A stretch of 24,068 nt of DNA, taken from the IMG/VR virus record IMGVR_UViG_2778261544_000011, positions 1 to 24,068 of that record. One strand, 5' to 3'. The position numbers were made by a program, and so were the translations under genes. Source of the DNA: a virus (Duplodnaviria; Heunggongvirae; Uroviricota; Caudoviricetes). Below, piece after piece: positions 1,973-24,068 of this stretch; position 1 is the first letter of the stretch, and each line of letters begins with the position of its first letter. The notes under the pieces are model-generated. The model saw nothing but the letters and a program-made list of their open reading frames with translations. It was not told the origin of the DNA and made no database searches.

Positions 1973-1997
1973 TAGTTCCTCTGTTATTGAGTTAACC

Positions 1998-2038
1998 CCC
2001 TTCAAAACCCCTTCAAAAACGCCGTAGCGCCTTCAAAG
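1998..2038. repeat. Three direct copies of CC(C)TTCAAA(A) across the start region of the I-like gene
   Basis: cccttcaaaa (1998-2007), cccttcaaaaa (2008-2018), gccttcaaag (2029-2038) read directly from sequence. Confidence 0.5.
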
Positions 2039-2200
2039 ATATGAAGGTAAGGTGTTTGCCCATCATGAGCCAAAACACAGCCGTAATGCGTTTGAGGCAA
2101 TTCACATTTGTTAGGTGCGAAATACCCCTGATTCTATATTCATGCATTAAGTGTTTTGCTGTCAGCATCATTAGCAAATGTTCATTGCTTATCATTAACG

Positions 2201-2929
2201 TTAATTTAAGCCATAATCGCCAATGAGCGCCCTTACATGTTTTATTGTTGTGTATATCGATTTACCAGACTCTCCATACTTAATAGCCAGTTCAGCAGGA
2301 GACATAACATAACTATCTGCATACATATCTGCTTTTTTTATTATTCTACTCAGTGAGTCGGCCTTAGGTAAATAAAACTGGATTCCGCCTACAACTTCCA
2401 GAAATGCTTTTGTTGCAATAAATGTTTTTGTCGTGCCATTTACTTCTTCTTGTGGGTCTACTCCAGTTTTTTTTAATGCCGCCTCAATAGCCCCCATAAT
2501 CATAGTCACACTTTCTGGAAGAATCTTTGTTTCTTTTCTCAATAAAGCGATAATAGCAGTTTTGCGGATATGCTTAATCGGACCACCACTAAAAAAATCC
2601 GGTTCAAATTTCATTGCGTCAAGATAGAATGTTTGTTTTCCGCAAATAGACATAAATTCATTAAAGAGAGCGGTGCCTGCGACATTACAAAAAACATCAA
2701 TTTCGCACTCGCCACTCTGTTCATGTTTCACTGCGTGAAATTGTTTTTCAATCAATTTCACATGCTCACTGACTTCATTATAATTACATGCATATCCCAT
2801 TTTACTGATATAAGACATAACATCACAGATATCACGAGAAAAGCATGAAGAAACAATGAATTTATTTATCGCTGTAATATCATTGTGTGGCGGCGTTAAC
2901 ATGAGATTTTTAAAGGTTTGTTTAGCCAT
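2201..2929 (-). CDS. Hypothetical protein, AT-rich orphan gene (243 aa from the ATG at 2929)
   Basis: ORF 2201-3058; internal ATG at 2929 is preceded by GAGAAG; visibly AT-rich relative to flanking phage genes; no family recognised. Confidence 0.5.
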   Translation of the reverse strand: MAKQTFKNLMLTPPHNDITAINKFIVSSCFSRDICDVMSYISKMGYACNYNEVSEHVKLIEKQFHAVKHEQSGECEIDVFCNVAGTALFNEFMSICGKQTFYLDAMKFEPDFFSGGPIKHIRKTAIIALLRKETKILPESVTMIMGAIEAALKKTGVDPQEEVNGTTKTFIATKAFLEVVGGIQFYLPKADSLSRIIKKADMYADSYVMSPAELAIKYGESGKSIYTTIKHVRALIGDYGLN

Positions 2930-3007
2930 TATCTTCTCGCTTAAGCTTTTGCATATACCTGTGTACATTTGAGCGCGATGCGCGGTAGCCAATGCTTGCA
3001 GCAAACT

Positions 3008-3047
3008 TAACGTTATCCGCAATGTTACGATAACGATTATTGCGGAT
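3008..3047. promoter_or_regulatory. Nested inverted repeats (TATCCGCAAT...ATTGCGGATA and CGTTATC...GATAACG), operator-like, upstream of the orphan gene
   Basis: Perfect 10-bp inverted repeat separated by about 15 bp, roughly 80-120 bp upstream of the 2929 start codon; not followed by a T-tract on either strand. Confidence 0.3.
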
Positions 3048-3189
3048 ATGGGAATCAAAAATAAGTTTATCCCCGATTGTGATAAAACATAATTTTTTCA
3101 AAAAAGAACCATCTCCGTTTGCTCCGGATGCTGTGAGATTACATGGGAATTTTGGGGAAGATAGATTTACCGTTTTCCATGAAGTATGC

Positions 3190-3194
3190 ACGGA
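3190..3194. repeat. 5-bp target site duplication ACGGA (left copy) flanking IS2
   Basis: acgga at 3190-3194 immediately outside the IS2 terminus at 3195; identical copy at 4526-4530. Confidence 0.85.
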
Positions 3195-3205
3195 TGGATT
3201 TGCCC

Positions 3206-4111
3206 CTATATTTCCAGACACCTGTTATCACTTAACCCATTACTGGCCTGCTGCCGTAGATATTCCCGTGGCGAGCGATAACCCAGTGCACTATGCGGAT
3301 GCCATTCGTTATAATGCTCGAACGCCTCTGCAAGGTTCTTTGCTGCCGTTAACCCGTCTGGTTTAGGCATGACACTGATGTAGTCACGCTTTATCGTTTT
3401 CACGAAGCTCTCTGCCATGCCGTTACTCTCCGGACTCCGCACCGCCGTGTTCTTCGGTTCAAGCCCCAACATCCGGGCAAACTGCCGTGTTTCATTAGCC
3501 CGGTAGCATGAACCATTATCCGTCAGCCACTCTACTGGAGACGCCGGAAGCTCGTTGCCGAAGCGGCGTTCCACCGCTCCCAGCATGACGTCCTGTACTG
3601 TTTCACTGTTGAAGCCGCCCGTAGTGACCGCCCAGTGCAGTGCCTCACGGTCACAGCAGTCCAGCGCGAACGTGACTCGCAGTTTTTCTCCGTTATCACA
3701 GCGGAACTCGAACCCGTCAGAGCACCATCGCTGATTACTTTCTTTCACAGCCACTCTGCCGGTATGTGCCCGTTTCGATGGCGGTACAGCGAGTTTTCGC
3801 TCAAGCAACAGCGCATTCTGGCGCATGATCCGGTAAATACGTTTGGCATTGATCGCAGGCATACCATCAAGTTCGGCCTGTCTGCGAAGCAGCGCCCATA
3901 CCCGACGATAACCATATGTGGGCAGCTCTCCGATAACATGGTGTATACGGAGAAGCACATCCGTATCATCTGAGTGACGGCTGCGGCGACCATCTTTCCA
4001 GTCATCGGTTCGTCTGAGAATGACGTGCAACTGCGCACGCGACACCCGGAGACAACGGCTGACTAAGCTTACTCCCCATCCCCGGGCAATAAGGGCGCGT
4101 GCGCTATCCAC
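3206..4111 (-). CDS. insD: IS2 transposase OrfB (InsD)
   Basis: 301-aa ORF recognised as IS2 InsD from memory; DDE integrase-type sequence; overlaps the upstream insC frame as expected for IS3-family frameshifting. Confidence 0.9.
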
Positions 4112-4434
4112 TTTTTTGCACGCCCATATTCCACGGCTTCTTTAAGGAGTTCATTTTCCATCGTTTTTTTGCCGAGCAGGCGCTGGAGTTCTTTAATCTG
4201 CTTCATGGCAGCAGCAAGTTCAGAGGCAGGAACGACCTGTTCTCCTGCGGCCACAGCAGTAAGACTTCCCTCCTGGTATTGCTTGCGCCAGAGAAATAAC
4301 TGGCTGGCTGCCACACCGTGTTGCCGGGCTACAAGGGAGACCGTCATTCCCGGTTCAAAACTCTGCTGAACAATAGCGATCTTTTCCTGTGTAGTACGCC
4401 GTCTGCGTTTCTCCGGTCCTAAGACATCAATCAT
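4069..4434 (-). CDS. insC: IS2 transposase OrfA (InsC), helix-turn-helix protein
   Basis: ORF 4069-4479; start placed at [12 protein letters not shown] (ATG at 4434), giving 121 aa as in IS2 InsC. Confidence 0.85.
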
Positions 4435-4525
4435 CTGCTCTCCAATGACTAGTCTAAAAACTAGTATTAAGACTATCACTTATTTAAGTGATATTGGTTG
4501 TCTGGAGATTCAGGGGGCCAGTCTA

Positions 4526-4530
4526 ACGGA
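4526..4530. repeat. 5-bp target site duplication ACGGA (right copy) flanking IS2
   Basis: acgga at 4526-4530 immediately outside the IS2 terminus at 4525. Confidence 0.85.
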
Positions 4531-4552
4531 TATGTGCAGCAAGTGGTAGGCA

Positions 4553-4577
4553 ATAAAAAAGCCGCACGGGGCGGCTT
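4553..4577 (-). terminator. Rho-independent terminator directly downstream of the gp27-like gene
   Basis: Minus-strand reading: AGCCGC-cccgt-GCGGC followed by TTTTTTATT, starting about 8 nt after the stop codon at 4586. Confidence 0.5.
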
Positions 4578-4585
4578 TGGGATAG

Positions 4586-4948
4586 TTAATGTTTTTCGAG
4601 AAACTCTAACACTCGTTCAAGTCTGGTCCCTAATCTGTCTATCTTTGATTCAAGTTTATCAAGTCTCCTGTGCAGTTCGGCATGCTTATAACGGCGAGAC
4701 ACTTCTCCATGTTTCCTGGCTACCGAAACAGCATTGATTAAACTAATCGCATATCTGTTCAATCCGGTTTTGGATATGACCAGTTCTGAACACCCGGCTA
4801 TTACTATATCCTGATTTATGATATTTAAAATTTCAGCCTGAGAATACTTACGCGAGATAAGCATTTTATCAAGCTTCCTTTTTGTCTTTTCAGGCAGTAA
4901 TTCAACTTTTGAAAGTCTGCCTCGTTTGTTTTTTGTTTGATTTTCCAC
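4586..4948 (-). CDS. Mu gp27-like (DUF3486-type) protein, putative small terminase/DNA-binding packaging protein
   Basis: 120-aa ORF; N-terminal [18 protein letters not shown]... pattern resembles Mu-like gp27 family proteins (recalled, unverified). Confidence 0.4.
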
Positions 4949-4972
4949 TTACACCCTCACAAAAAAACATGA

Positions 4973-5254
4973 TCACTCATCACTTTGTTGGTCACAATAT
5001 TCTACTAACCGAGACATGCATTCAATAAGAGCAGGTGCTGATTGTAAGAACCCTGCCAATCGGGATATTTCCTCACCAGAATAACCACATCCCCCTCGCA
5101 ACTGATTTTCTTCCAGAAACCTACCAACAAAAGTAATCCCATTCAGTAAACTTTCTCTATGCCAGTCAGCATCAACACGTAAACCCCAGCGGCTTTCTTT
5201 GTCAGGCATGCTATTCGCGACTGCTTTCATTGACTCAAGCAAATGATTACGCAT
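4973..5254 (-). CDS. Hypothetical small protein (93 aa)
   Basis: ORF 4973-5335; ATG at 5254 preceded by strong AAGGAGG; start overlaps the stop of the upstream gene (ATGCGTAA). Confidence 0.45.
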   Translation of the reverse strand: MRNHLLESMKAVANSMPDKESRWGLRVDADWHRESLLNGITFVGRFLEENQLRGGCGYSGEEISRLAGFLQSAPALIECMSRLVEYCDQQSDE

Positions 5255-5444
5255 GGCGCACCTCCTTAGCCGGGACGCGGCCAGCAAACAGCAACACAAA
5301 ATCACGCGCCAGCATACGGCGGGCGGTTGTTTCATCGGGTGCGTTGACGGATTCGCGGTGTGGGCGGTCGTTCAGGTCGGAGCGGCGAACGACCAGAAAG
5401 TGAAAGGTAAATTCAGGGTGTAACGGGGTTGGGGTCGTAGCCAT
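5247..5444 (-). CDS. Hypothetical small protein (65 aa)
   Basis: ORF 5247-5636 (first codon GTG); ATG at 5444 preceded by strong AAGGAGG; upstream part of the ORF lacks an SD. Confidence 0.4.
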   Translation of the reverse strand: MATTPTPLHPEFTFHFLVVRRSDLNDRPHRESVNAPDETTARRMLARDFVLLFAGRVPAKEVRHA

Positions 5445-5990
5445 TCTGGCAGCCTCCTTGTACTGGTTTAAGGAGTCACCGCCTGAGTTGCTACGCTCAT
5501 AAATGGCGGTGACGCTGGCGGGGGTAGCAATACCGGCGTACAAGGAAACCGGCCAGCCTTTCGGCTGCCCCACCAGCGCCACCATAGATACAGTGCGGGC
5601 CTTGCCGCTGGGTATGGTTGCGCGATGGCATGACACAAAAAAAGACGCTGGGCGCGTCTGTGTCGCCTTGTACTGATTAAACGGGTTGCTACGCCCGATA
5701 CTCGATTCTGCCGAGTACTTTTATAAAATATCAACAACAGAATGAGTTGGCAAGTGTCTGTACGCATCAGCTATACAATGCATAAAAATACAACACACAA
5801 AGCTCATTACACATGAATTATCACACCAATTGGTTAATATCAATAAGCGACAATCATTGTATATGATACTGATTTTTATCATGTTTTACACATAAACTAG
5901 ACATTAACTGAGTTAATTTCATTGTTAATTGATATGATCCACGATTAAGAATGGCTACTTTTCGCCAAGGAATTTGCTACCCCTTACCAA

Positions 5991-6374: not shown

Positions 6375-7208
6375 TTACCTAGTCATATGAAGGATTTTTA
6401 CTGCAGCGTTGTTCCAGGTGACCTGATGGTGAATGCGTTTATGGCTGGCACCCATCAGTGAGATTTTTACGCACGACGGCGCATACATGACGGAATAAAA
6501 ACTTTTAACGTAGGTTCCGGAATCCAGATACAGCTCGGTCATTCCGCCGCTGTTTTTCTGCGTCTGTTTCTGCCCTAACTGGACAGCACCGATCGTCATA
6601 AACAATTCACCACGGCGACCGAGATTCGTGTACGTATTCACATCCTCGTTAATGCGCCCCATGAATGAGAACGGTCGATCAACCGAACAGATAAAGCTGT
6701 TCATTGCCTTGCGTTTCACCCATGAAGCATGGCCGCCATTGTCACCAAGAAAATCCCCGCCCTGCGACATAGCGATGGAAAGCGCAGGAATTGATTCGTA
6801 ATACGCCAGCATTTCAGAAAGGATCGCATCCAGTTTCCTTATCGGAAAATAGGCCTGGTCATAGTTGCGATCCACCCGAAACTGAAACTCGTGATAATCA
6901 TCATCGAGCTGAATGAAGTATTTACACCCGACCTTTTTTGCCAGGTCGAAACAGGCATTACGGGCGTAAAAAATTGAGCGACGATCACCGAAATTATCGG
7001 CTTCGTCAAAACGACTGGCGATTTCGGCTTTGGAAAACACCAGCACCTGTTCACCAAATTCTGCTATGTACTGATGCCGGGTTTTATCTTCATCATCAAC
7101 GACGATAAAAATTTTCCCTGTATAGCCAGCACGACGCAAAGTCCGGTAAGTCAGAACTTTGTCCGGTCGCCCATGAGTCAGAATAAAGGCGCAAAAATCA
7201 TCACGCAT
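6375..7208 (-). CDS. Nucleotide-diphospho-sugar transferase (GT-A)-like fold protein, function unknown
   Basis: ORF 6375-7226; ATG at 7208 preceded by GGGGAGGAGG; N-terminal FILTHGRPD...IFIVVDDED and later IQLDDDY resemble GT-A/NTP-transferase DxD-type motifs; no C-terminal transmembrane segment; start abuts the ParB-like stop (ATGCGTGA). Confidence 0.55.
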   Translation of the reverse strand: MRDDFCAFILTHGRPDKVLTYRTLRRAGYTGKIFIVVDDEDKTRHQYIAEFGEQVLVFSKAEIASRFDEADNFGDRRSIFYARNACFDLAKKVGCKYFIQLDDDYHEFQFRVDRNYDQAYFPIRKLDAILSEMLAYYESIPALSIAMSQGGDFLGDNGGHASWVKRKAMNSFICSVDRPFSFMGRINEDVNTYTNLGRRGELFMTIGAVQLGQKQTQKNSGGMTELYLDSGTYVKSFYSVMYAPSCVKISLMGASHKRIHHQVTWNNAAVKILHMTR

Positions 7209-7989
7209 ATTCCTCCTCCCCGCCATGCATGATCTCCACCATGCACTGCGTCATCCGGACAAAACCATTTTCAATAGCCTGCTGATAATCAATGATCACC
7301 AGTGCCGACTCTTCGAAAAGCGCCTGAACTTCAGCGGGCGCATGAGCGTAATAGTCCGCAATTCTGCTGAAATTAAATACTGTGTGGCGTTCTGCCGCAC
7401 ACAGGAGGAATTTTTCGATATCAGGCTCAAGGGACGCCGAACGTATCCGGCTGACCAGCTCCTGAGTTTTCGTATCGTCGTACAGTTCGCCGATATCCGG
7501 TTTATCGCCCGACGGCTCATAAACAGGCGTATCAATTTTCGTCGTGTACGGCTCCTCCTCATTTCCTGTACCTGGCAAAACATCCGTCAACAGTTCATCA
7601 ATTTCTGTCGGGCTGAATCCTGTCAGGGAGATATCAAAATCAGCATTGATTAGGTCCGACAGCTCCATCCGTAACAGATCTTCATCCCAGCCAGCATTCA
7701 TCGGCAGGCGATTATCTGCCAGGCGGTACGCCTTTTTCTGCTCATCCGTCAGGCCAGACAGAACAATGACCGGAACAGAATCCATTTTGAGCATTTCAGC
7801 CGCCATAACACGACCGTGACCTGCAATAATTTCGCCCTTTTCATCAATCAGCACCGGATTAGTCCAGCCGAATTGCTTAATGCTTTCTACCAGTTGTGCC
7901 ACCTGCTCAGGGCTGTGTGTCCTGGCATTGTGTGCATACGGAGACAGTTCTTGTAACGGGCGATAGACGATTTTCAATTTCTCGCTCAT
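7201..7989 (-). CDS. ParB-like nuclease domain (ParB/Srx fold) protein
   Basis: 262-aa ORF; N-terminal region with ParB N-domain-like motifs (…LSPYAHNART…GHGRVMAA…); ATG at 7989 preceded by GCGAGG. Confidence 0.7.
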   Translation of the reverse strand: MSEKLKIVYRPLQELSPYAHNARTHSPEQVAQLVESIKQFGWTNPVLIDEKGEIIAGHGRVMAAEMLKMDSVPVIVLSGLTDEQKKAYRLADNRLPMNAGWDEDLLRMELSDLINADFDISLTGFSPTEIDELLTDVLPGTGNEEEPYTTKIDTPVYEPSGDKPDIGELYDDTKTQELVSRIRSASLEPDIEKFLLCAAERHTVFNFSRIADYYAHAPAEVQALFEESALVIIDYQQAIENGFVRMTQCMVEIMHGGEEEYA

Positions 7990-12076: not shown

Positions 12077-12363
12077 AAATATCCCTCCTTTCTCCAGATT
12101 TCTTGTGTGCGAAAAACACCTTCTGCATGCATCAGGCGTAATTCTTCTTTGGTGTAATCGCTGGTTTTTACCCGCCCGTCGATTAAATCGTGGCACGAGC
12201 TACAGGCAATCGCTGCCTGCATATCGTGTGGCTTTATCGCTGTTCCGCACGTTCCCGCCAGTCGGTAATGCGCCAGCACAGACGTTTCCGGATCGTGATT
12301 GCAGTAGCCAGGAATTCTGACGGTGCACATCTGCCCCCGCGCCGCTTTACGTAAATCCACCAT
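12073..12363 (-). CDS. DUF1364 (YbcO-like) phage protein, Cys-rich putative nuclease
   Basis: 96-aa ORF resembling DLP12 YbcO-family proteins (recalled); conserved Cys/His pattern; start overlaps the upstream gene stop (TAATG). Confidence 0.65.
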   Translation of the reverse strand: MVDLRKAARGQMCTVRIPGYCNHDPETSVLAHYRLAGTCGTAIKPHDMQAAIACSSCHDLIDGRVKTSDYTKEELRLMHAEGVFRTQEIWRKEGYL

Positions 12364-12962
12364 TACGCAAACTCCAGTAGCTGCGCGGCCACATTTTCGA
12401 CTTGTTCCGGAGAGGAAAATTTACGGAACAGAATCCAGTTCCACAGCACATTCAGTACAGATTTATAAACCTGCTGAAACTCGGTTTCGTCCATATTCGC
12501 AAACGCGATAGATTTCGCCCGACGCCCACGGCTACCGTCCGGATAAAAATGCTCGGTGTAAAATCCGGCCTGAATGGTTACCCACTCGCGGAAAGCCTCA
12601 AACGACTTTAGCAATGCCGTATCCCGGGTTCTGCGAGTCGCAACAGTGTTAAGGTATTGCTCTGCGGCATCACTCAGGGCTGGCGTATGTTCCCGGCCTA
12701 CCGATTCACACAGGTAATCAACGAAACCGGACACCAGTTTTCGTTCGCGAGGCGTGATCGCCCCACCGACCGGAGTCCAGTAATCGAATCCGAGCTGCAG
12801 GAGTTTAAAAAAACGCTTGTGGAATGCGTAGTTACGAACACGCTTAAAGTCTGCGTGTATCCACTCACCTATTTTGATTTGATGCAGAAAATCGCAACTC
12901 TCCGGCGTCGCCGGGAGAAGTAATCCGGAAGAGGTTTGTTTGACCAGTTGTATATGCGCCAT
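12363..12962 (-). CDS. DUF1367 (YbcN/YdfU-like) phage protein
   Basis: ORF 12363-12974 (first codon TTG); ATG at 12962 preceded by GGAG; sequence resembles the YbcN/YdfU nin-region family. Confidence 0.65.
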   Translation of the reverse strand: MAHIQLVKQTSSGLLLPATPESCDFLHQIKIGEWIHADFKRVRNYAFHKRFFKLLQLGFDYWTPVGGAITPRERKLVSGFVDYLCESVGREHTPALSDAAEQYLNTVATRRTRDTALLKSFEAFREWVTIQAGFYTEHFYPDGSRGRRAKSIAFANMDETEFQQVYKSVLNVLWNWILFRKFSSPEQVENVAAQLLEFA

Positions 12963-13021
12963 TGCTATCTCCAATGGCGCTGTAGGTTGCCAGTTGTTCA
13001 GGCTGGCTTACGAATTATAAC

Positions 13022-13195
13022 TCATTCCCGAACCACCTTGAAACCGAGCCTTTCCAGGTATTCAATGAATGCCTCGATAGATAAAATCACATGATCATCA
13101 GGAATTAACGTTGTGTAGATAACTTCTCCATTCTCAACGCGCACAGCATAGAGGCCATCTTCACTAAAAATTTCACGTAATTCTTCGATTTTCAT
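13022..13195 (-). CDS. Hypothetical small acidic protein (57 aa)
   Basis: Hand-translated MKIEELREIFSEDGLYAVRVENGEVIYTTLIPDDHVILSIEAFIEYLERLGFKVVRE; below the ORF-track cutoff; GGAAGGA about 11 nt upstream of the ATG. Confidence 0.3.
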   Translation of the reverse strand: MKIEELREIFSEDGLYAVRVENGEVIYTTLIPDDHVILSIEAFIEYLERLGFKVVRE

Positions 13196-13314
13196 CAACA
13201 GAATCCTTCCAGATAAATAGCACTCCCCTGTTCGGGGTCCATCCCTCTTCTCCCTGCACGCTACTTAAGTATTTTTGATTCTATTCCGGCACTATCCAAA
13301 ACTTCAAACGCGTT

Positions 13315-13346
13315 GAAAATAAAAACAAAAACCCGCCGAAGCGGGT
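13315..13346 (-). terminator. Rho-independent terminator at the 3' end of the hok transcript
   Basis: Minus-strand hairpin AACCCGC-ttcg-GCGGGTT followed by TTTGTTTTTATTTTC. Confidence 0.5.
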
Positions 13347-13415
13347 TAAGTGTGGGTGCATTGAGGATGCCTGACACATCAGAGGTGGCGGGAGATTTCT
13401 CCCCCGCCAGGTCTC

Positions 13416-13571
13416 TTACTCCTCAGGTTCGTAAGCTGTGAAGACAGCGACCTCCGTCTGGCCGGTTCGGATTCGTACCTCGCAGAGGTCTTTCCTCGTT
13501 ACCAGTGCCGTCACTATGACGGTTAAACAGATGACGATCAGGGCGATTAACATCGCCTTTTGCTGCTTCAT
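13416..13571 (-). CDS. hok: Hok/Gef-family type I toxin (51 aa)
   Basis: MKQQKAMLIALIVICLTVIVTALVTRKDLCEVRIRTGQTEVAVFTAYEPEE is a typical Hok/Gef-family toxin sequence; ATG at 13571 preceded by AAGGAGAAG; an in-frame upstream extension to the ATG at 13628 could act as a mok-like leader frame. Confidence 0.8.
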   Translation of the reverse strand: MKQQKAMLIALIVICLTVIVTALVTRKDLCEVRIRTGQTEVAVFTAYEPEE

Positions 13572-13924
13572 AGCCTGCTTCTCCTTGACCTTTCGGTCAG
13601 TAAGAGGCAATCTATATGTGACGAGCATATAGGGGCCTCACTTCGATTTATAGTCGGGTGGGGCTTTTATCTATCTGCCGTTGGTGTTCATGCCCGAGGC
13701 AGATAGCCTCAAGCACCCGCAGCAATTCTACTTAACTCTCCTTTTCCCGCAAACCGTTTTTATCCTCAACGAAAATTTTACCAATATCGCCTAACACATC
13801 TCCCTTGCCCTGACGATGCTTACCTCTTTACACAGCCCCCAATTTATGTATTATCTTTTACAAACAACCAGTTAAGAGCTATCGGTGGGTGAGTTCGCCC
13901 TGCGGTAGCTTTTCCTTTATGCAT

Positions 13925-13960
13925 TGCATCTATTTATGTTCTAGTATATTCCTATATGTT
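13925..13960 (+). promoter_or_regulatory. Candidate promoter for the two-gene cassette
   Basis: TTGCAT followed at sub-optimal spacing by TATATT in the AT-rich region upstream of the 13975 start (SD AAGGA); exact -35/-10 assignment uncertain. Confidence 0.25.
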
Positions 13961-13974
13961 CAAAAGGACTTTTC

Positions 13975-14907
13975 ATGCACAGCGTTAATTTCTATTCATT
14001 CCGCGTCTTGACCCATAAAGGCAGTCGAGCCAGCAAAAAACTTAATGAATTGGGTTTAAGTAATAAAAAAACGGCATATGAACTTTTTGTTGATTATTTT
14101 ACTCTATATAAAAACACCCCCATCGAGTTTGGCGTATCCAAAACTAAAATATCTCTGGAACAACACGCTAAACTTCACTTTGATAACTCAAAAAAAATTA
14201 TATATGGTTATGTAAAAGTTGGGAAATATGGAGAAAGCAGTGAAATAAAAGATGTAAAACTCAAAAAAATCCACTATAGGACAACTGCTTATGATGTAAC
14301 ACTCAAAGAACGTTATATTTTAATATACCTACCAGACGCCCTTGAAGAAGGAATTATTGCATTCCACTCTTGCGATAATATTTCTGCTCGAGGTGTCCTT
14401 TCTGATTCTATCACTGAATATCTAAAAAACAAATTTCAACTCGAAGCAAGAATCAATCCATTACATCATAAGAAAATCCCTCAATATATTCTCAATTCCG
14501 AATTAAAACAAATTAAGGCTCAAGGATATAAAGCACCAAAAGACATTGCTGATTCCTTTGGTCAAAACAAAACAAACATCAAGACAGACTTAATAATAAA
14601 AGCAAACGATGGCATGTTCGGAAGTTTCAGAGATTTAAGAAACAAGAATATAGGAAACATCATTGAGATTATTGAAGATAAATGTGATGCAATAAAAGTA
14701 AGCTTACAACTCGGCAGTCGGACTGTCGTTTTCAATTATGATACCATACTAAAAAAAGGAATTTCCGCAGAGTTAGATGATAATGATCTAAAAATCGACC
14801 CATTAACAGGCATACCTGATCTAACAGCACTTCATGACACGATAAAAAACCTTTCTAATGATATATTGTTAGAACTGCATAGCGGAAACAAAGGGGTGAT
14901 TATATGA
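13975..14907 (+). CDS. Hypothetical soluble protein (310 aa), RexA-like candidate, first gene of a two-gene cassette
   Basis: AT-rich ORF opposite in orientation to the flanking phage genes; ATG preceded by AAGGA; N-terminal NFYSFRVLTHKG weakly recalls the RexA N-terminus (unverified). Confidence 0.6.
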   Translation: MHSVNFYSFRVLTHKGSRASKKLNELGLSNKKTAYELFVDYFTLYKNTPIEFGVSKTKISLEQHAKLHFDNSKKIIYGYVKVGKYGESSEIKDVKLKKIHYRTTAYDVTLKERYILIYLPDALEEGIIAFHSCDNISARGVLSDSITEYLKNKFQLEARINPLHHKKIPQYILNSELKQIKAQGYKAPKDIADSFGQNKTNIKTDLIIKANDGMFGSFRDLRNKNIGNIIEIIEDKCDAIKVSLQLGSRTVVFNYDTILKKGISAELDDNDLKIDPLTGIPDLTALHDTIKNLSNDILLELHSGNKGVII

Positions 14908-15458
14908 ATAAAATAAATGTACTGGGTGTAATAATAAAACACTACAAAACAATGTCAGATCAGCGTGGAACAATGTTGATGAGCGACATTATCGTACATT
15001 TTATTGTTCCGTTATCTCTTTCTTTCGTTCTGTGCTGGACATACGGAATAATGAAACCGGCAATTGCTTCCGTCTTTGTTAACTTCGGGGCTATTACAAC
15101 AGCACTATTAATGAGTGCAGTAATAATGATTTATGAACAAAAACAAAAAACCATCACTAAGATATCAGACATAATTGAAGGAAACAAATCCCGAGACAAA
15201 TTGATATCATTAAACACTAACAAAACCATATATGAGCAGTTATGCCACAACGTCGCTTATGCAATATTAACTTCAATAGTATTGGTTATATTTTCAGTGA
15301 TAATATATTTCCTGCCTGACAATGCAGTGGATTTAATGAAATGGTATTTTCGCGCACCTGCATATATTGTTAGCTTTTTAGCCTATACATCCTTTTTTAT
15401 CACTGTTATAACGTTCTTAATGGTAATAAAAAGATTTAGCACAATTTTAGATAATTGA
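14904..15458 (+). CDS. Integral membrane protein with four predicted TM helices (184 aa), RexB-like candidate
   Basis: ATGA start/stop overlap with the upstream gene; AGGGGTG ahead of the ATG; four hydrophobic segments (about residues 26-48, 53-77, 117-137, 150-175). Confidence 0.6.
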   Translation: MNKINVLGVIIKHYKTMSDQRGTMLMSDIIVHFIVPLSLSFVLCWTYGIMKPAIASVFVNFGAITTALLMSAVIMIYEQKQKTITKISDIIEGNKSRDKLISLNTNKTIYEQLCHNVAYAILTSIVLVIFSVIIYFLPDNAVDLMKWYFRAPAYIVSFLAYTSFFITVITFLMVIKRFSTILDN

Positions 15459-15467
15459 ACAGCGGAA

Positions 15468-15495
15468 CAGCCGCCCTTTTGGGCGGCCTCCTGAT
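15468..15495 (+). terminator. Hairpin (AGCCGCCC-tttt-GGGCGGC) after the cassette; weak terminator
   Basis: GC-rich stem immediately after the stop at 15458, followed by ctcctgattatttg (only moderately T-rich). Confidence 0.35.
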
Positions 15496-15558
15496 TATTT
15501 GAGGGTGCAGAAATCCCTCCGGTTAAGGATTAAATTTTATTTACAACACTAAATTTAA

Positions 15559-16146
15559 TTATTCAGGCGCGCGAATCTGTTCCGCACAATGCAACAATGC
15601 TTCTGTCACTTCCTTAAGCGTTACAGTATCGCCATCATCCAGTCCTGCAACTTTTGCGTGCCGGACAAACGCCGCGCAAAGCTCGTTAAACGCCACTGCC
15701 CGTACATCAGCCAGGAAAGCATCTGTAGCCGGGGTTTGCGGCATCCTTCCGCCTATTGCGCAGATATACGCATCAGATAGTTCATCCTGCTCGCCATCAA
15801 ACACGTAGCAACTCTGTGCGATAAATTTATTCAGCCCCGCATTCTCCGCCGCAAGCGCAGCAAGATTAGTCTCCAGCCCTGCAATGCGTTCCTCCAGTTC
15901 GTAGACTCTGCATTGCTCTTTATCATCAATCAGATATAACCCAAGACATTCGCTTTCTACCCAACCGCCGAAATCATGATCGTAACGCTCACATGAAAAC
16001 TCACCGTCGCTGTCCTTTGTTGGGATGGTGTAGCTATCTAATGGGCCACCATACGTCGGCACATTTCCCAATGCCGGATGCTCAATCCACATGAAAAATG
16101 CACGTCCGGTTATAGGGCAAATATCTGGTCGCCATTGATTACTCAC
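15559..16146 (-). CDS. Hypothetical phage early protein (195 aa)
   Basis: ORF 15559-16176 (first codon TTG); preferred start is the GTG at 16146 preceded by AGGAGG-aaacca, overlapping the upstream gene stop (GTGAGTAA). Confidence 0.45.
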
Positions 16147-16876
16147 TGGTTTCCTCCTGGCAAAGCTGGGCGACAATATCGCGATATTTATTCAGCTCCC
16201 GCAGCGCGACACAGACTCGCTCCCATTTCCGGATATCACTTTTCGCCCGACGCAGTTCGCGGTTTGCCTGTCGCAGCGATGGCAGAACCAGATTATCCAC
16301 TCGCTTCTCAAGCGGCTGCACAATGTCTGCCACAGTTTCTGTTTTAATATCTTCCTGTGTTGCAGCTTCCTGTACTGGTAACGCAACACATGCAGGCTGA
16401 GGAAAGGCTTTACCATCAGTTTCCGCTACCGATGCCGCTTTCGGCTCTGCTGGTAAATTACCGCCCGGCATGCAGTAACGAAATTTACCGTTCTGATTAA
16501 CACGAATCAGACGACCTTTGCTGATTGCCATTGCCAGCGTTGAAGCCACTTTGCGGGATGTTGTACCGAACAGCGTAGCCAGTTCATCCGCCGTTTGTGG
16601 TCCGCGTTGTTCAATCGTCGCGGTTAAATCGCACTCTGAGATTTTCGCTACTGTCGCCGTGGTGGTTTCTTCCGGCTGTTCTTCTGGCGCTGGCTGTTCC
16701 TGCTGAACGTTGTTATCAGCCACACGCCAGGTGTATACGCTTTTATCAACGAAGCCAGCCTTTTTCAGTTCCCACAGCTCGTTCAGTACTTCTTCACGAC
16801 TGATATCAAGTCGCGCAGCCAGCTCTACCGACGTGGCTTTTCCCATCGCTTTCAGTGCGTCAAAAACAGTCTCCAT
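16139..16876 (-). CDS. Hypothetical protein with an N-terminal winged-helix-like DNA-binding region (245 aa)
   Basis: ORF 16139-16942; ATG at 16876 preceded by GGGAGGAAAT; N-terminus [30 protein letters not shown]... looks like a winged-helix motif; Glu/Gln-rich central linker. Confidence 0.5.
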
Positions 16877-16910
16877 TAAAATTTCCTCCCGGTAAAAATT
16901 ACTTCTCAAC

Positions 16911-17576
16911 TCAAACAAAACCAGCCGCTTTCCGGCGCTCATATTCCTGTTTCAGCAACTCAATTGGCGTTGGTCCCGACGGGCGTTCTGGTGCTGCCAG
17001 TTGCCGCCGTACGGGCGGAACGCTGAAGCCATCACCAACATGCTTTGCCCATTTCGCCAGTTGCCGTTCTGCAAGCCGTTTTAACTCCCCTTCGGTCATC
17101 TGACGCTCAATCCCCTTTGAACGCATCTCGAGGCAAATGTGATACAGCACAGGCTGAGTCCATGGGTATTTATCGCTTCCGTCGTATCGCCAGGACTCAT
17201 TGCGCCAGCGCCGGTACTCCTCCATCACGGCATCCACCGTCAGACCGAATGGATTGGCTCCGCTTTCCGAAATCAGCGCCACAAACTCAGCCAGGTCCGG
17301 AGGCCATGTTTCACCCGCCCGGCAGCGGTTCATGCACTGGCGGCAGACCTGACGGATTTGCTGCTCAGTCATCGCGCCAATCTGTGCAATCCAGAGCTTC
17401 GAAGGTGCGGCCCCGTTCTTCTGGGTCCAGCGGTTCGAATAAACCTCCCCCATGAGTTCCCACAGCTTCCACGCCGTTTCCGTCGCTGATAAATCCGTTT
17501 TCACGTTCCCACTGCTCACGTGCTGCCCGAATTTCCTGAACGGCCCGTGATGCGGTGCCGCCTGGTGCTGCTGCAT
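16911..17576 (-). CDS. Replication protein P-like (DnaB helicase loader, lambda P family)
   Basis: C-terminal ...[40 protein letters not shown]... aligns by eye with lambda P; start ambiguous (ATG 17576 with GGGGTGA SD, or internal ATGs at 17453/17372); overlaps the O-like gene. Confidence 0.65.
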
Positions 17577-18489
17577 GGCTCACCCCCTTGCTGACTGGTT
17601 TAACCTGCGCCCTGACGTGATGTACGTGACGGGCGAATTTCTGCTCCCACTGAACCTGCGTGAAAACTTTCCCCTCCGCTGCCCAGTAGTCCCGGAAGGC
17701 GGCAAGTTCAGCAGGTGTAAATTCCGGCTCCGGCAGAGCCACTCCCCACAGTGCAGCCCGCCGTCGAAAATCCGGCGACGGATGCCAGCCATCGGTCATC
17801 GGAAATTTCCCAATGGGTTCGCTCAGGCCTTCCAGGTAATCAGGTTCCGCTGCCTGCAACGGCACGCCATTTGCCTCACTGGCCGGAGCACTCTCGCGCA
17901 CGCGCGCGTTATGTGTGGGGTTTATATATCTGTTATCTGTTATCTGGATACCGCATGACAAAGCGTTAGCCTTATCCTTAGGCTTATCCTCAGGCAAAGG
18001 GATTGCCTTATCGAATGCCATCCCCAAAGCCTCAGAAACACCGTAGGACGCGGCTCTCAGCGATTCCCTGGCCTCCCATTTGAGAGGGCAATCAGGAATT
18101 AAAGCGAATGCCTTTGCCCAGGATTTAATGACATTTATCGAGTTTGGCGGATTGTGTTTCGCAGCATTCGGGAGCCAAAAAACTCTGGCTTTGATATCTG
18201 CTTTCACCATGCCAAGATTCATGGCTTCGCCTAAGGCTAAGTCAAAGGCTTCGATATCCCACCCCAACTCTTCAGCCATTGCTGCCCGCCCGGCTTTAAA
18301 TAACCCAGGAATAATCCCGGTAAATGGACTGGTCAGCAGATAAATAAACAAACTCTGTCCACTTGGAGGCAGAGGAGATAACGCCCTAAATTTGGGATCA
18401 TCCCATATCGTTATTTTTACCTTGCGATAAGGCTCATTGTTTGCCTTAGTTTTTGGCATGGGATTTGGCATGTTTTTAGCCTTAACCAT
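17365..18489 (-). CDS. Putative replication initiator/replisome organiser (O-like by position)
   Basis: ORF 17365-18543 (first codon TTG); ATG at 18489 preceded by GAGG; immediately upstream of the P-like gene; contains an iteron-like repeat array. Confidence 0.5.
17923..18012. repeat. Iteron-like direct repeats with a TTATC core inside the O-like gene (candidate origin)
   Basis: tatctgttatctgttatctgg (17928-17946) and gccttatcct-tag-gcttatcctcagg...gccttatcg (17968-18012). Confidence 0.5.
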
Positions 18490-18568
18490 AATTGCCTCAT
18501 CTGGTGTCGAACCTTCCTCCGGATATAATCTGTGATTCCCCAATCAACAGAACCAAAGGAGGTTCGAC

Positions 18569-19024
18569 ATGTCTTTAATGGCTGTTTGCCAAAAAATTAA
18601 AAATCACATGCGCACTGTGTACAAAATTAACCAGCACGACCACGACATGGTTAACCTGGTAACATGCAGGGCTATAGTTCTCACCCGCTTCCACCTGATT
18701 CTTACAAATCACTCACGGGATTCTCTCCTGAGCCCCAGTAGCTATGATTCGCTGGCGAGATTGCTATACCAGGCAAGTGAAAAACGTATTACTGATCCCT
18801 TATCTGTTTCCCCTGTCCTTGCTCTTCACATTCTGGAAGACGCTCTCTATGACCCCCGTCAGGAATGCGACTATCAATTTCTTGAAGCTGAGAAATCAAT
18901 GAGAGAATGGTTCGTTGAATATCGCGAACGGCAGCAAAAGTTACCCTCAGAGTATTCAGAACTTCCGCAACTTCGCTGGAGTGACCTTCCGAACGAATTA
19001 TTTGCTCTGACCCCAGAAAATTAA
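18569..19024 (+). CDS. Hypothetical protein (151 aa) encoded antisense to the early-right operon
   Basis: Textbook SD (AAGGAGG, 6-nt spacer) before the ATG at 18569; TATAAT hexamer at 18526-18531; overlaps the competing minus-strand ORF 18789-19202. Confidence 0.4.
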   Translation: MSLMAVCQKIKNHMRTVYKINQHDHDMVNLVTCRAIVLTRFHLILTNHSRDSLLSPSSYDSLARLLYQASEKRITDPLSVSPVLALHILEDALYDPRQECDYQFLEAEKSMREWFVEYRERQQKLPSEYSELPQLRWSDLPNELFALTPEN

Positions 19025-19221
19025 TTCTTGGGGATAAATCGTCCATCACTGAGCGCAGGCTAAGTTCTGCGCTCTGAAGCTTCCGAACCGAAGTTTCTGT
19101 ACCCCAACCCGCAATTTCTGCATTTTTTGCAAGTTTCAGGATCCAGTCTCGTAGTTCGCCGGGAGTAAGATTTCCGGCATTTATGTACGGTTTGATTTTC
19201 ATTATTGGATACCCTATTCAA

Positions 19222-19644
19222 TCAATGCACTACAACAGAATCGTCGGACGCTCCACCACCGCTGAAATGTGCTTTCCGGTAAACGGCCTGGACTGCATCA
19301 TCATGCGCATCAATTGCCGTACTCAACGCTTCCTGCGCCGCCAGTAATGCACGGCGTTCCAGGGTATCGAAGATGCAGAGTCGGTGACGCAGCTCGCGCG
19401 GAAGAATTGCCAGAACCGCAGGGATCAGTTTCTGAATTTTTTCCCTTTGCGCTTTCGTTTCACCTTTTAACCAACGGTGATAGATGTTCTGCTGATTATT
19501 CCAGTCCTTGCCTGGTACCAGGGGCAATTCGCCGCCCCCCTGGCGCAGATATTCTTCAGTAATTGCACTGGCTACCCATGCCTGCCCTTTTTCAGCAGCC
19601 AGGGCTAACAACACTGATTCGATGTGCTCATGCTTGATTTTCAT
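19222..19644 (-). CDS. ydaT: YdaT-like protein (Rac prophage YdaT family)
   Basis: 140-aa ORF starting MKIKHEHIESVLLALAAEKG..., recalled as closely resembling K-12 Rac YdaT; ATG preceded by AGGAG; follows the ydaS-like gene. Confidence 0.6.
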   Translation of the reverse strand: MKIKHEHIESVLLALAAEKGQAWVASAITEEYLRQGGGELPLVPGKDWNNQQNIYHRWLKGETKAQREKIQKLIPAVLAILPRELRHRLCIFDTLERRALLAAQEALSTAIDAHDDAVQAVYRKAHFSGGGASDDSVVVH

Positions 19645-19903
19645 GAATCAACTCCTGTGCATTTTGTGTGTTAGCCTTACATCCAACAGGTAAACCGTCG
19701 GTTGGGTTAGGGTAGATATCAGGCCGAAGTTCATGAGGTGTAACCTCGAAATTCGTAGCCTCTGCGATACGCAATACCTTTTCAGGGCTTAACTGACTAC
19801 GTCCAGTAGCAACGAGGCTAATCATTGATTGCGAACAACCAGCCAGCGCGGCCAAACAAGACTGTCGTACACGATTTTTTTTCAAATATTCATCTAATGT
19901 CAT
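19628..19903 (-). CDS. ydaS: Cro-type/YdaS-like helix-turn-helix protein
   Basis: ORF 19628-19942; preferred start is the ATG at 19903 with AAGGTGA; HTH-like QSCLAALAGCSQSMISLVATGR; divergent from the repressor gene. Confidence 0.55.
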   Translation of the reverse strand: MTLDEYLKKNRVRQSCLAALAGCSQSMISLVATGRSQLSPEKVLRIAEATNFEVTPHELRPDIYPNPTDGLPVGCKANTQNAQELIHENQA

Positions 19904-19978
19904 AAGGGTCACCTTAGTAATGCTCATCAAAATATTAACCATACTAATTTAAATGATCAATACCTATATCAGTTTGAG

Positions 19979-19999
19979 ATTATGAACTGTATTCATAAG
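19979..19999. promoter_or_regulatory. Operator-like palindrome TTATGAA-N5-TTCATAA in the divergent immunity promoter region
   Basis: Perfect 7-bp inverted repeat between the ydaS-like and repressor genes, just upstream of the ATG at 20008. Confidence 0.3.
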
Positions 20000-20007
20000 A
20001 TGGTGGT

Positions 20008-20472
20008 ATGAGAAGAAAACGCGAAGAAATCGCATCGCCGGAAGCTACGCAACGTCTGCGCGCAATCTGGGATGCAAAAAAAAGAGAGCTCAAACTGACT
20101 CAGGAGCTTGCTGCCGAGCTAATGGGTTTTGAGGCGCAATCTGCGGTTAGCCATTATCTCAACGGAAAGGCTCCACTTAATACTGATGCGGCATTAAAAT
20201 TCGCTGTATTACTAAGAGTTAAGCCTGAAGAGTTGAGGCCTGATTTAGCTGATCTGATGAATTACGTCCGTTCCTCAGGAACTTATGACGAAAGTTTCGA
20301 AGGCGAAGGTTGGCGGATGGTTAACAAGCAACAAGCTGATTTACTAGATCTTTTTGATATCCTTCCCGAATCAGAAAAAGCAAAACTAATCGAAAGACTT
20401 AAAGGTCAGAATGAACTCTACAAAGAAGCATTTGAAAATATGCTGGCAGCTCAAAAACGCATGAAGAAATAG
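20008..20472 (+). CDS. racR: Prophage repressor, RacR/DicA-like HTH protein without a peptidase domain
   Basis: 154-aa ORF with an N-terminal HTH and C-terminal LLDLFDILPESEKAKLIERLKG resembling DicA-family repressors; position matches racR in a Rac-type early region; symbol by context. Confidence 0.6.
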   Translation: MRRKREEIASPEATQRLRAIWDAKKRELKLTQELAAELMGFEAQSAVSHYLNGKAPLNTDAALKFAVLLRVKPEELRPDLADLMNYVRSSGTYDESFEGEGWRMVNKQQADLLDLFDILPESEKAKLIERLKGQNELYKEAFENMLAAQKRMKK

Positions 20473-20491
20473 CTCCCACCACCTCGTAACT

Positions 20492-20519
20492 AAACCGCCA
20501 TTTTTGGCGGTTTTTTTGT
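20492..20519 (+). terminator. Rho-independent terminator after the repressor gene
   Basis: AAACCGCCA-ttttt-GGCGGTTT followed by TTTTTTGTC. Confidence 0.6.
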
Positions 20520-20612
20520 CCCCTCCGCCCGCCCCGCCTTACTTTTTATCAAAAAAAACACTAAAAATTTCATTAGGATAGTACATTTTTATCAACAAAA
20601 TGCATATTTGTA

Positions 20613-20641
20613 TTGATCATTAATATGAACATAACTAATAT
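20613..20641 (+). promoter_or_regulatory. Candidate sigma70 promoter for the early-left operon
   Basis: TTGATC (20613-20618), 17-bp spacer, TAATAT (20636-20641). Confidence 0.35.
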
Positions 20642-20707
20642 TATTACAGAAGCAGCACGGCGCTGTAGGTTTTAGTTCCGCCACCCGGCGTTAAGGGGAG
20701 AGATAAG

Positions 20708-20842
20708 ATGGTGCATTACGAAGTAGTTCAGTATTTGATGGATTGTTGCGGTATCACTTACAACCAGGCTGTGCAGGCTTTACGCAGCAACGACTGGGAT
20801 CTCTGGCAGGCAGAAGCCTCTATCCGCAACAACAAAATGTGA
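20708..20842 (+). CDS. Small protein (44 aa), YdaG-like
   Basis: Hand-translated MVHYEVVQYLMDCCGITYNQAVQALRSNDWDLWQAEASIRNNKM; GGGGAGAG SD; below the ORF-track cutoff; position matches the small genes next to racR. Confidence 0.4.
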   Translation: MVHYEVVQYLMDCCGITYNQAVQALRSNDWDLWQAEASIRNNKM

Positions 20843-20852
20843 GGTGCGAAAA

Positions 20853-21005
20853 ATGCAAAAAATCGACCTCGGCAATAACGAATCCCTGGTGTGCGGCGTG
20901 TTCCCCAACCAAGATGGAACGTTCACCGCCATGACTTATACCAAAAGCAAGACATTCAAAACTGAAACGGGCGCACGTCGCTGGCTTGCCAGAAATACTT
21001 GCTAA
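20853..21005 (+). CDS. Small protein (50 aa), YdaF-like
   Basis: Hand-translated MQKIDLGNNESLVCGVFPNQDGTFTAMTYTKSKTFKTETGARRWLARNTC; GAGGTG SD 7 nt upstream. Confidence 0.4.
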   Translation: MQKIDLGNNESLVCGVFPNQDGTFTAMTYTKSKTFKTETGARRWLARNTC

Positions 21006-21189
21006 TCCATTATTTGGATTAATTCAATATTCTCGCTGTAGGGGTATAGCAGAAACCACCAAAGCCCGGAGGTGGTGAAATAAAACTGGGCGCAACACGA
21101 AGGCGCATTTCCGATATCCATAAAGAGTCGGTCTTGTCTGTTAAATTTAAATAGTGGGAGTGCGCCTCCGGTTGTAAATAACGACATTG

Positions 21190-21251
21190 CTGTGTGTAGT
21201 CCTGGCGGCATCAGTTTTTTCTTGAAGTTCGGCTGATGTCCGCCCTTTTTT
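21190..21251 (+). ncRNA. DicF-like small RNA candidate ending in an intrinsic terminator
   Basis: GGCGGCATCAG...CTGATGTCCGCC hairpin (21204-21245) followed by CTTTTTT; recalls the 3' hairpin/terminator of the Qin prophage sRNA DicF; lies just upstream of the kilR-like division-inhibitor gene. Confidence 0.35.
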
Positions 21252-21425
21252 AAGTGAATTTTGTGATGCGGTGAATGCGGCTAAGCGCACGTGGCACAGT
21301 TAAAAGTCATGTTAGTCCTTATTGGTTTGGGTGGGAAAGCCGACTGTAATTGTTAACTGGTTGCAGTCACCTGGAGGCACCAGGCACCGCATCAACAAAG
21401 TTCATTTGTAAAAATGGAGATAATT

Positions 21426-21647
21426 ATGATTGCACATCACTTCGGAACTGATGAAATACCACGTCAGTGTGTGACTCCTGGCGATTATGTTCTTCATGAA
21501 GGCCGGACATATATTGCCTCGGCAAACAATATTAAAAAGCGAAAACTATATATTCGTAACCTGACTACAAAAACATGCATTTCTGACTGCATGATTAAAG
21601 TCTTCCTCGGTCGTGATGGTTTACCTGTAAAGGCGGAGTCATGGTGA
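21426..21647 (+). CDS. kilR: KilR-like small protein (FtsZ-targeting killing protein family)
   Basis: ORF 21414-21647; start at [12 protein letters not shown] (ATG 21426) with GGAGAT SD; 73 aa; resemblance to Rac KilR from memory. Confidence 0.5.
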
Positions 21648-21817
21648 TGACTAAGAAAATAAAATGTGCTTACCACCTTTGCAATAAAGGAATTGAAGAA
21701 AGCAAAAGCATTAAAAGACCACTTCATTTCATGCGTGGAGTTATCCCAACGACGGAAATGAAAAAATATTGTAGTGAAAATTGTGCCGAAAAAGACCAGA
21801 TGGCACACGAACTTTAA
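21647..21817 (+). CDS. Small Cys-rich (zinc-ribbon-like) protein, YdaE-like, 56 aa
   Basis: Hand-translated [56 protein letters not shown]; start overlaps the upstream stop (TGATGA); CxxxxC...CxxxC pattern. Confidence 0.45.
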   Translation: MTKKIKCAYHLCNKGIEESKSIKRPLHFMRGVIPTTEMKKYCSENCAEKDQMAHEL

Positions 21818-21891
21818 TTAACTGACTATGCGAAACTGAATTTATGCCAGCAATGGCAGGGATTCGCTCAACCTTAATTAAGGAGAAAAAC

Positions 21892-22167
21892 ATGATTACC
21901 AGTTATGAAGCCACTGTTGTAACTACTGATGACATTGTTCACGAAGTTAATCTGGAAGGAAAGCGTATTGGCTACGTGATTAAAACAGAAAATAAAGAAA
22001 CCCCATTCACTGTGGTTGATATCGACGGTCCATCAGGCAACGTTAAAACACTTCACGAAGGTGTCAAAAAAATGTGCCTGGTGCATACCGGAAAGAATCT
22101 GCCCGCAGAAAAAAAAGCCGAATTTCTGGCAACTCTAATTGCAATGAAATTAAAAGGTGAAATCTGA
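21892..22167 (+). CDS. racC: RacC-like protein (91 aa)
   Basis: ORF 21844-22167; ATG at 21892 preceded by AAGGAGA; immediately upstream of the recE-like gene as in Rac. Confidence 0.5.
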   Translation: MITSYEATVVTTDDIVHEVNLEGKRIGYVIKTENKETPFTVVDIDGPSGNVKTLHEGVKKMCLVHTGKNLPAEKKAEFLATLIAMKLKGEI

Positions 22168-22268
22168 AAGAAATAGCCTGCGTATGGCGCAGGCTATGAA
22201 CAGTGTGTATCCGGCAAGATCATTCACTGAACAAAACGAATTTTAATCTGAGTTGAGGTTAAAAAACA

Positions 22269-24068
22269 ATGAGCACAAAACCACTCTTCCTGTTACGGAA
22301 AGCGAAAAAATCATCCGGTGAACCTGACGTCGTCCTGTGGGCAAGCGACGATTTTGAATCGACCTGTGCCACTCTGGACTACCTGATCGTTAAGTCAGGT
22401 AAAAAACTGAGCAGCTATTTTAAAGCTGTTGCCACGAATTTTCCTGTCGTTAATGACCTGCCCGCTGAAGGTGAGATCGATTTTACCTGGAGTGAACGCT
22501 ATCAACTCAGCAAAGACTCCATGACATGGGAACTAAAACCGGGAGCAGCACCAGACAACGCTCACTATCAAGGCAATACCAACGTCAACGGCGAAGACAT
22601 GACTGAGATTGAGGAGAATATGCTACTCCCAATTTCTGGCCAGGAACTGCCCATTCGTTGGCTTGCTCAACACGGCAGCGAAAAACCGGTAACGCACGTT
22701 TCACGCGACGGACTCCAGGCATTACACATTGCTCGGGCTGAAGAACTACCGGCTGTTACTGCCCTGGCTGTTTCCCACAAAACCAGCCTGCTCGACCCGC
22801 TGGAAATTCGCGATCTCCACAAACTGGTTCGTGACACTGACAAAGTTTTCCCTAATCCTGGTAATTCAAACCTGGGACTGATAACTGCTTTTTTCGAAGC
22901 ATACCTGAACGCTGACTACACCGATCGAGGACTGCTGACAAAAGAGTGGATGAAGGGTAATCGTGTTTCACACATCACTCGCACGGCTTCCGGTGCTAAT
23001 GCTGGCGGCGGAAACCTCACCGATCGCGGCAAAGGTTTCGTACACGATCTGACGTCACTGGCGCGCGACGTAGCCACTGGCGTACTGGCCCGTTCAATGG
23101 ATCTGGACATCTATAACATTCATCCGGCACACGCTAAACGCATTGAGGAAATTATCGCTGAAAATAAACCGCCCTTTTCTGTTTTCCGCGACAAATTCAT
23201 CACCATGCCTGGCGGGCTGGATTATTCCCGCGCCATCGTGGTTGCTTCCGTAAAAGAAGCACCAATTGGGATCGAGATCATCCCCGCGCACGTCACTGAA
23301 TATCTGAACAAAGTACTGACTGAAACCGATCATGCCAACCCTGATCCGGAAATCGTGGATATTGCCTGCGGTCGCTCCTCTGCCCCGATGCCGCAGCGAG
23401 TAACAGAAGAAGGAAAACAGGATGATGAAGAAAAACCGCAACCATCTGGAACAACGGCAGTTGAACAGGGAGAGACTGAAACAATGGAACCGGACGCAAC
23501 TGAACATCATCAGGACACGCAGCCGCTGGATGCTCAGTCACAGGTAAATTCTGTTGATGCGAAATATCAGGAACTGCGGGCAGAACTCCATGAAGCCCGG
23601 AAAAACATTCCATCAAAAAATCCTGTCGATGCCAATAAATTGCTTGCTGCATCACGTGGTGAATTTGTTGACGGAATTAGCGACCCGAACGATCCGAAAT
23701 GGGTAAAGGGGATCCAGACTCGCGATTCTGTGTACCAGAACCAGCCAGAAACGGAAAAAACCAGCCCGGATATGAATCAACCTGAGCCAGTAGTGCAACA
23801 GGAACCGGAAATAGCCTGCAATGCCTGCGGCCAGACTGGCGGGGATAACTGCCCTGACTGTGGTGCGGTGATGGGCGACGCAACATACCAGGAAACATTC
23901 GATGAAGAGAGTCAGGTTGAAGCTAAGGAAAATGATCCGGAGGAAATGGAAGGCGCTGAACATCCGCACAATGAGAATGCTGGCAGCGATCCGCATCGCG
24001 ATTGCAGTGATGAAACTGGCAAAGTCGCAGATCCCGTAATCGTAGAAGTGTTAGCGCCAGTGATATAA
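22269..24068 (+). CDS. recE: Exonuclease VIII (RecE)-like protein, N-terminal region only (599 aa; stop at the window end)
   Basis: N-terminus [46 protein letters not shown]... recalled as near-identical to K-12 Rac RecE; ORF ends with TAA at 24066-24068, well short of the ~866 aa recalled for full-length RecE. Confidence 0.75.

Follow-up and report, generated by a model that had tools for sequence, protein, structure and literature searches.

The recE gene of a decaying Rac-like prophage is, with little room for doubt, split by a simple insertion of an IS21-family element, with the nuclease domain kept in the genome but separated from the rest of the protein. The window (the whole stretch of 24,068 nucleotides analysed here) ends with the 5' part of the gene and the first bases of the element, while the 3' part lies on a second contig of the same assembly. 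Both junctions, the target duplication, the identity of the IS ends, and the collinearity of the downstream part with Rac can be read directly from the contigs. In the proposed course of events, an istA-istB element of about 2.1 kb, in the same orientation as recE, would have inserted after nucleotide 1780 of the gene, breaking codon 594 in the linker that immediately precedes the nuclease domain, with GAAG duplicated as the 4-bp target. The recE frame then runs into the left repeat of the element, where six foreign codons and a TAA complete the 599-codon ORF. A short-read assembly unable to resolve the IS repeat would stop its contig 55 nt into the element, and the remainder of recE (residues 594-866) starts 55 nt into another contig of the same genome, followed by recT, ralR, xisR, intR, and ttcA. 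A single complete copy of the IS presumably joins the two contigs.

The ORF (22269..24068, plus strand) opens with the ATG at 22269 and runs for 599 sense codons to a TAA stop at 24066-24068, the last three bases of the window, as described in an earlier note made from the sequence. It is chimeric, consisting of RecE residues 1-593 and six IS-encoded residues. The recE part (nucleotides 1-1780 of the gene, at 22269..24048 on the plus strand) comprises codons 1-593 plus the first base of codon 594, with the Exonuc_VIII domain in its N-terminal region. Full-length recE genes, including that of E. coli 746, match it at 1780 of 1780 nucleotides (100%). The gene of strain 746 encodes the 866-aa protein WP_001595659.1, which the window protein equals over residues 1-593, after which it reads VLAPVI-stop where the reference continues with DIEPGI. 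The earlier note had linked the N-terminus to the RecE of Rac and given full-length RecE as about 866 aa, with the catalytic domain at its C-terminus. This length and domain order proved accurate: in the intact 866-aa protein, PDB entry 3H4R matches residues 605-866 and Pfam PF12684 (PD-(D/E)XK-like) lies at residues 615-850.

The window ORF shares residues 1-593 with Rac RecE but lacks residues 594-866, and therefore lacks the PD-(D/E)XK nuclease domain, whose absence had been suspected from the length of the frame. Its sole Pfam match is PF06630, Exonuc_VIII ("Enterobacterial exodeoxyribonuclease VIII"), at residues 2-178 (E = 3e-98, 328 bits); PF12684 was not found in it by Pfam, and no solved structure in the PDB was matched. 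Against the NCBIfam exodeoxyribonuclease VIII equivalog NF007259, the ORF scores 1182 bits, under the curated cut-off of 1269 bits that represents a full-length match, because it covers model positions 1-609 of 877 and positions 610-877 are missing. A PADLOC defence search returned no match for the ORF. We infer that the 599-aa product cannot be an exonuclease. The suggestion of a truncated, non-catalytic, or pseudogenised allele was thus right as to what the window encodes, which is non-catalytic and pseudogenised, but the cause, an IS21-family insertion, had not been recognised.

When the 599-aa product was looked up as an exact sequence, a single contig was returned: NLNV01000023.1 (86,216 bp), part of assembly GCA_002229815.1. 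Positions 12269-24068 of the window are identical to this contig. It is not by chance that the stop marks the window edge: the contig continues for 35 nt past the called recE-like gene before it ends, which suggests that the window was trimmed to the last base of this gene. The left junction reads ...CGTAGAAG followed immediately by TGTTAGCG, with the target site GAAG at 24045..24048 (plus strand) as the last recE bases. The next 20 nt, at 24049..24068 (plus strand), are the first 20 nt of an IS21-family left terminal inverted repeat (TGTTAGCGCCAGTGATATAA) and form codons 594-599 (VLAPVI) and the TAA. Together with the following 35 nt of the contig, they are identical at 55 of 55 positions to the left end of an istA/istB element; being an exact IS left terminus, they make the last six codons and the stop IS sequence. 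The breakpoint was placed by an alignment of the contig end, intact recE, and two independent copies of the IS. The contig tracks recE to ...GTAGAAG and then the IS from its first base, TGTTAGCG..., and the flanks of the independent IS copies diverge from each other exactly at that first base (T), the same point at which contig and recE part. As a check for a fold-back artefact, the terminal 20-mer TGTTAGCGCCAGTGATATAA was sought elsewhere in the window, and no second occurrence was found on either strand.

If the insertion is simple and duplicates 4 bp, the right junction should consist of ...AATCGTGGCGTTGACA, GAAG, and ACATAGAGCC..., with recE resuming at nucleotide 1781. The ORF predicted across this junction, in the recE frame, has a GTG start inside the IS repeat and encodes 278 aa: MALTE and then RecE residues 594-866. 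This predicted protein was matched exactly once among about 15 billion proteins, on NLNV01000049.1 (18,091 bp), a contig of the same assembly, GCA_002229815.1. The contig starts with exactly 55 nt of the IS right end, followed by GAAG and then by recE from nucleotide 1781 (...GTTGACA, GAAG, ACATAGAGCC). The GAAG present at both junctions, at 24045-24048 in the window and at 56-59 of the partner contig, constitutes a perfect 4-bp direct target duplication. The 278-aa ORF, the 3' fragment of recE at 44-880, retains the nuclease domain with the whole of the crystallised part (within residues 594-866). Among other candidate starts, a TTG-start form of 276 aa and forms of 239 aa and 237 aa were absent from the collection of about 15 billion proteins; shorter fragments with internal starts (230, 180, and 159 aa) were present in it, but these are not junction-specific and were set aside.

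On the partner contig the 278-aa ORF is followed by recT (873-1682), which overlaps it, and then by Lar/ralR, DUF1187, xisR, intR, ttcA, and dbpA. Starting where recE resumes, the contig runs collinear with an intact Rac over 4,000 nt, differing at 15 positions and without any gap. In strain 746, the genes 3' of recE are recT, ralR, a DUF1187 gene, xisR, intR, and then the chromosomal ttcA, an arrangement standard for the left arm of the Rac prophage. The context of Rac recE is thus matched on both sides, by kilR, ydaE, and a racC-like gene upstream in the window and by recT, ralR, xisR, intR, and ttcA downstream on NLNV01000049.1; the difference is that recE is intact in Rac, whereas the gene here is split after nucleotide 1780 by the IS. 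The earlier note had proposed that the nuclease domain might continue in another frame beyond the window and that the downstream sequence be inspected for it and for recT. Both are indeed present on NLNV01000049.1, although the domain does not follow directly in another frame but resumes after the IS and the 4-bp duplication.

The element itself is common. The 55-mer that follows the recE breakpoint was matched in 2,249 of 5,426 complete E. coli genomes, mostly on plasmids and at up to 15 places per genome. In annotated records, istA (IS21 family transposase) comes roughly 100 nt after it, with istB next. The IstB protein scores 297 bits against the NCBIfam equivalog NF038214 (IS21_help_AAA), passing the cut-off of 200. 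A reference copy in plasmid pETEC_80 is 2,123 bp long, carries istA and istB, has TGT...ACA ends, finishes in ...GGCGTTGACA, and lies between two copies of a duplicated 4-bp target, CTGC; full-length copies were found in 709 of the 5,426 complete genomes. The terminal inverted repeats are imperfect and of the 5'-TG...CA-3' type (IRL TGTTAGCGCCA; IRR, as the reverse complement, TGTCAACGCCA). Because of this imperfection, an automatic repeat search missed the right inverted repeat, and its position was found from the sequence and the CTGC duplication. The left end at recE is identical at 55 of 55 positions to the pETEC_80 element and the right end is near-identical to it; the assembled part of the IS in this strain comprises only the 55 nt at each end. 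Judged by these ends, the element at recE is assigned to the IS21 family and would be about 2.1 kb in size. It resembles IS21 and IS5376, which encode an istA transposase and an istB AAA+ helper, in having the ends of an istA/istB element, its imperfect terminal repeats, and its short target duplication. The duplication is 4 bp at recE, as against the 5 bp reported for the insertions in PMC10122671. The right repeat of IS21 was reported to carry a -35 box (PMC10122671), and this is matched by a TTGACA at the right end of the present element.

The abundance of the element bears on the alternative that comes nearest to the preferred reading, namely that insertion was followed by an IS-mediated rearrangement (an inversion or translocation, for example) that left the recE halves flanked by two different IS copies. 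Many E. coli genomes carry the element in multiple copies, with the 55-nt IS end or the element found at up to 15-19 places in each, and the assembly cannot show that the two contigs are linked. Against this, both IS ends point the same way, the duplication has been preserved, and collinearity extends through the Rac and ttcA sequence downstream, so that a rearrangement is quite unlikely and one IS copy in situ is the simplest reading.

That the break is a chimeric contig end or a sequencing artefact, and that recE is really intact in the strain, is more improbable again. The junction does lie close to a contig end, 55 nt away, in the least reliable part of an assembly, and the same junction was seen nowhere else: the recE/IS junction allele is absent from the 5,426 complete E. 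coli genomes, none of which covers the last 8-20 nt of the ORF; the 27-nt junction had no matches in viral contigs or in contigs of species-representative genomes; and a phage collection gave partial Rac-like matches only, with no record holding the recE/IS junction. The reciprocal junction on the second contig, however, comes with a precise GAAG duplication, the footprint of a real transposition and unlike the product of chimeric reads, which argues strongly against chimeric assembly. Both halves of recE are accounted for without any contig bearing an uninterrupted gene. The symmetric 55-nt IS overhangs, moreover, would fit the k-mer overlap that a de Bruijn assembler is expected to leave at a true repeat boundary. 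Nor is the frame broken by a sequencing error with the nuclease domain simply following on, a case that the earlier note had considered; the break is a transposition event.

There is a close to negligible chance that recE was truncated locally, through point mutations or some small rearrangement, and that the genome has lost the nuclease domain. The appeal of this reading lies in the clean TAA that closes the ORF and in the last 20 nt, which agree in register with the reference at 12 of 20 positions. Yet these 20 nt and the 35 that follow match an IS21-family terminus at every one of 55 positions, and neither the nuclease domain nor recT has been lost: the same assembly has them directly beside the other IS end. 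The length of the ORF is the one point in favour of a RecE that is natively about 600 aa in this lineage, a reading dismissed by the existence of an 866-aa RecE with identical first 593 residues and by the 1668 records, under genes annotated as recE or exodeoxyribonuclease VIII, that span at least 80% of the query. These records come from a megablast search of the 5,426 complete E. coli genomes, 4,514 of which contain recE-like DNA; alignment to full-length RecE, which the earlier note had advised, gives 866 aa as the length in this lineage.

With the simple IS21-family insertion as the preferred reading, the consequences for expression can be considered. The insertion would be polar on the nuclease fragment and on recT; the latter, whose start overlaps the end of recE, is probably affected. 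The 278-aa fragment would lack both the native promoter and the native start codon, and a Shine-Dalgarno sequence is not recognisable at its candidate GTG start. The IS right terminus forms a perfect outward-facing -35 hexamer, TTGACA, with TATTTA 17 nt downstream in recE (region 50-84 of NLNV01000049.1). This TTGACA-17-TATTTA arrangement matches the sigma-70 consensus at 9 of 12 positions and fails the strict rule; two strict sigma-70 scans of the IS right end and recE flank detected no outward or hybrid promoter. The recET module is best regarded as pseudogenised, within a cryptic prophage that is decaying, and activation of recET by the IS is speculative and of low probability.

The split point falls six residues inside the classical boundary of E588, and the product of the 278-aa ORF (MALTE and residues 594-866) is nearly the same fragment as E588, one of the engineered RecE truncations, with E564, used in recombineering. 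E588 comprises the C-terminal 279 residues of RecE and was reported to have full 5' exonuclease activity (PMC11257833). The difference is one of origin: E588 was engineered, whereas the fragment here arises from a chance transposition, starts at a GTG in the IS repeat, and has only putative expression. It is conceivable, but very unlikely, that RecE functions here in split form, with the N-terminal 593 residues made alone from the early operon, while the near-E588 fragment and RecT are made through istAB read-through or from the hybrid TTGACA/TATTTA promoter, giving an sbcA-like, repressor-independent activation of RecET. The recET genes of Rac are normally silent, and sbcA mutations of E. coli K-12 activate silent recE and recT. 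Like the IS insertion, these mutations lie at recE or upstream of it and could affect how recET is expressed. Their effect, however, is activation, whereas the insertion most likely prevents expression, and nothing seen here points to activation.

In its kind, the finding is already known, being composed of a known gene (Rac recE), a known type of element (IS21 family), a simple insertion with duplication, and a contig break at a repeat. The allele was unseen in 5,426 complete E. coli genomes, yet it is not a new kind of thing. Its biological weight is small, as IS insertions into genes of cryptic prophages are routine. Its use is rather in annotation: a RecE without its domain at the edge of a window or contig should be read as a repeat-induced assembly break, in which a mobile element supplies the final codons and the stop, and the domain that seems to be missing lies elsewhere in the assembly. 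The strain would also be a convenient natural source of an N-terminal-only RecE for studying that uncharacterised domain.

The prophage is a mosaic Rac-like element with other signs of decay, and no complete genome matches more than 61% of the window. The immunity region (19222-20472) is unlike that of Rac in the genomes that share the identical recE and carries different repressor and cro-like alleles; it holds a YdaT-like gene (19222-19644, minus strand), a YdaS/HTH_3 gene, and a 154-aa HTH_3 repressor-like gene (20008-20472, plus strand). These differences point to mosaic recombination between Rac-like prophages. Mu-like morphogenesis genes on the minus strand (265-5636) adjoin Rac-like lysis and regulatory genes. 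They include, all on the minus strand, a gpT major head gene (265-1161), a gpI protease gene (1148-2005), a gene for a 285-aa Mor-domain protein (2201-3058), a Gp27-like gene (4586-4948), and Ash (5247-5636).

An IS3-family (IS2-like) element with HTH_Tnp_1 and rve domains lies at about 3187-4530, inside the late region of the prophage and among the Mu-like head genes, with orfB at 3206-4111 and orfA at 4069-4479 (both on the minus strand). It is about 98.5% identical to copies in 4,900 of 5,426 E. coli genomes. In the Mu gene order, the large terminase and portal genes are expected between gp27 and I. Both are apparently missing at the site of the IS3-family element, pointing to a defective prophage that has undergone a deletion associated with this IS.

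Several smaller gene groups were also observed. An overlapping pair on the minus strand (6375-7226 and 7201-7989) encodes a TET-associated glycosyltransferase (TAGT, PF20691, E = 8e-37) together with a protein that bears a ParB_N domain and has an N-terminus like that of PADLOC type II methyltransferases (E = 1e-38); the pair may form a phage DNA-modification module. A hok/gef-family toxin gene (13416-13628, minus strand) and a Rem gene (13022-13195, minus strand) lie between the DUF1367/antiterminator region and a two-gene cassette. This cassette consists of overlapping ORFs of 310 and 184 aa (13975-14907 and 14904-15458, both on the plus strand), on the strand opposite to that of their neighbours. 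Neither ORF had a Pfam or PADLOC match, and over their full length they match only the PHROGs families of unknown function phrog_15676 and phrog_15250; the pair is a candidate moron or defence cassette.
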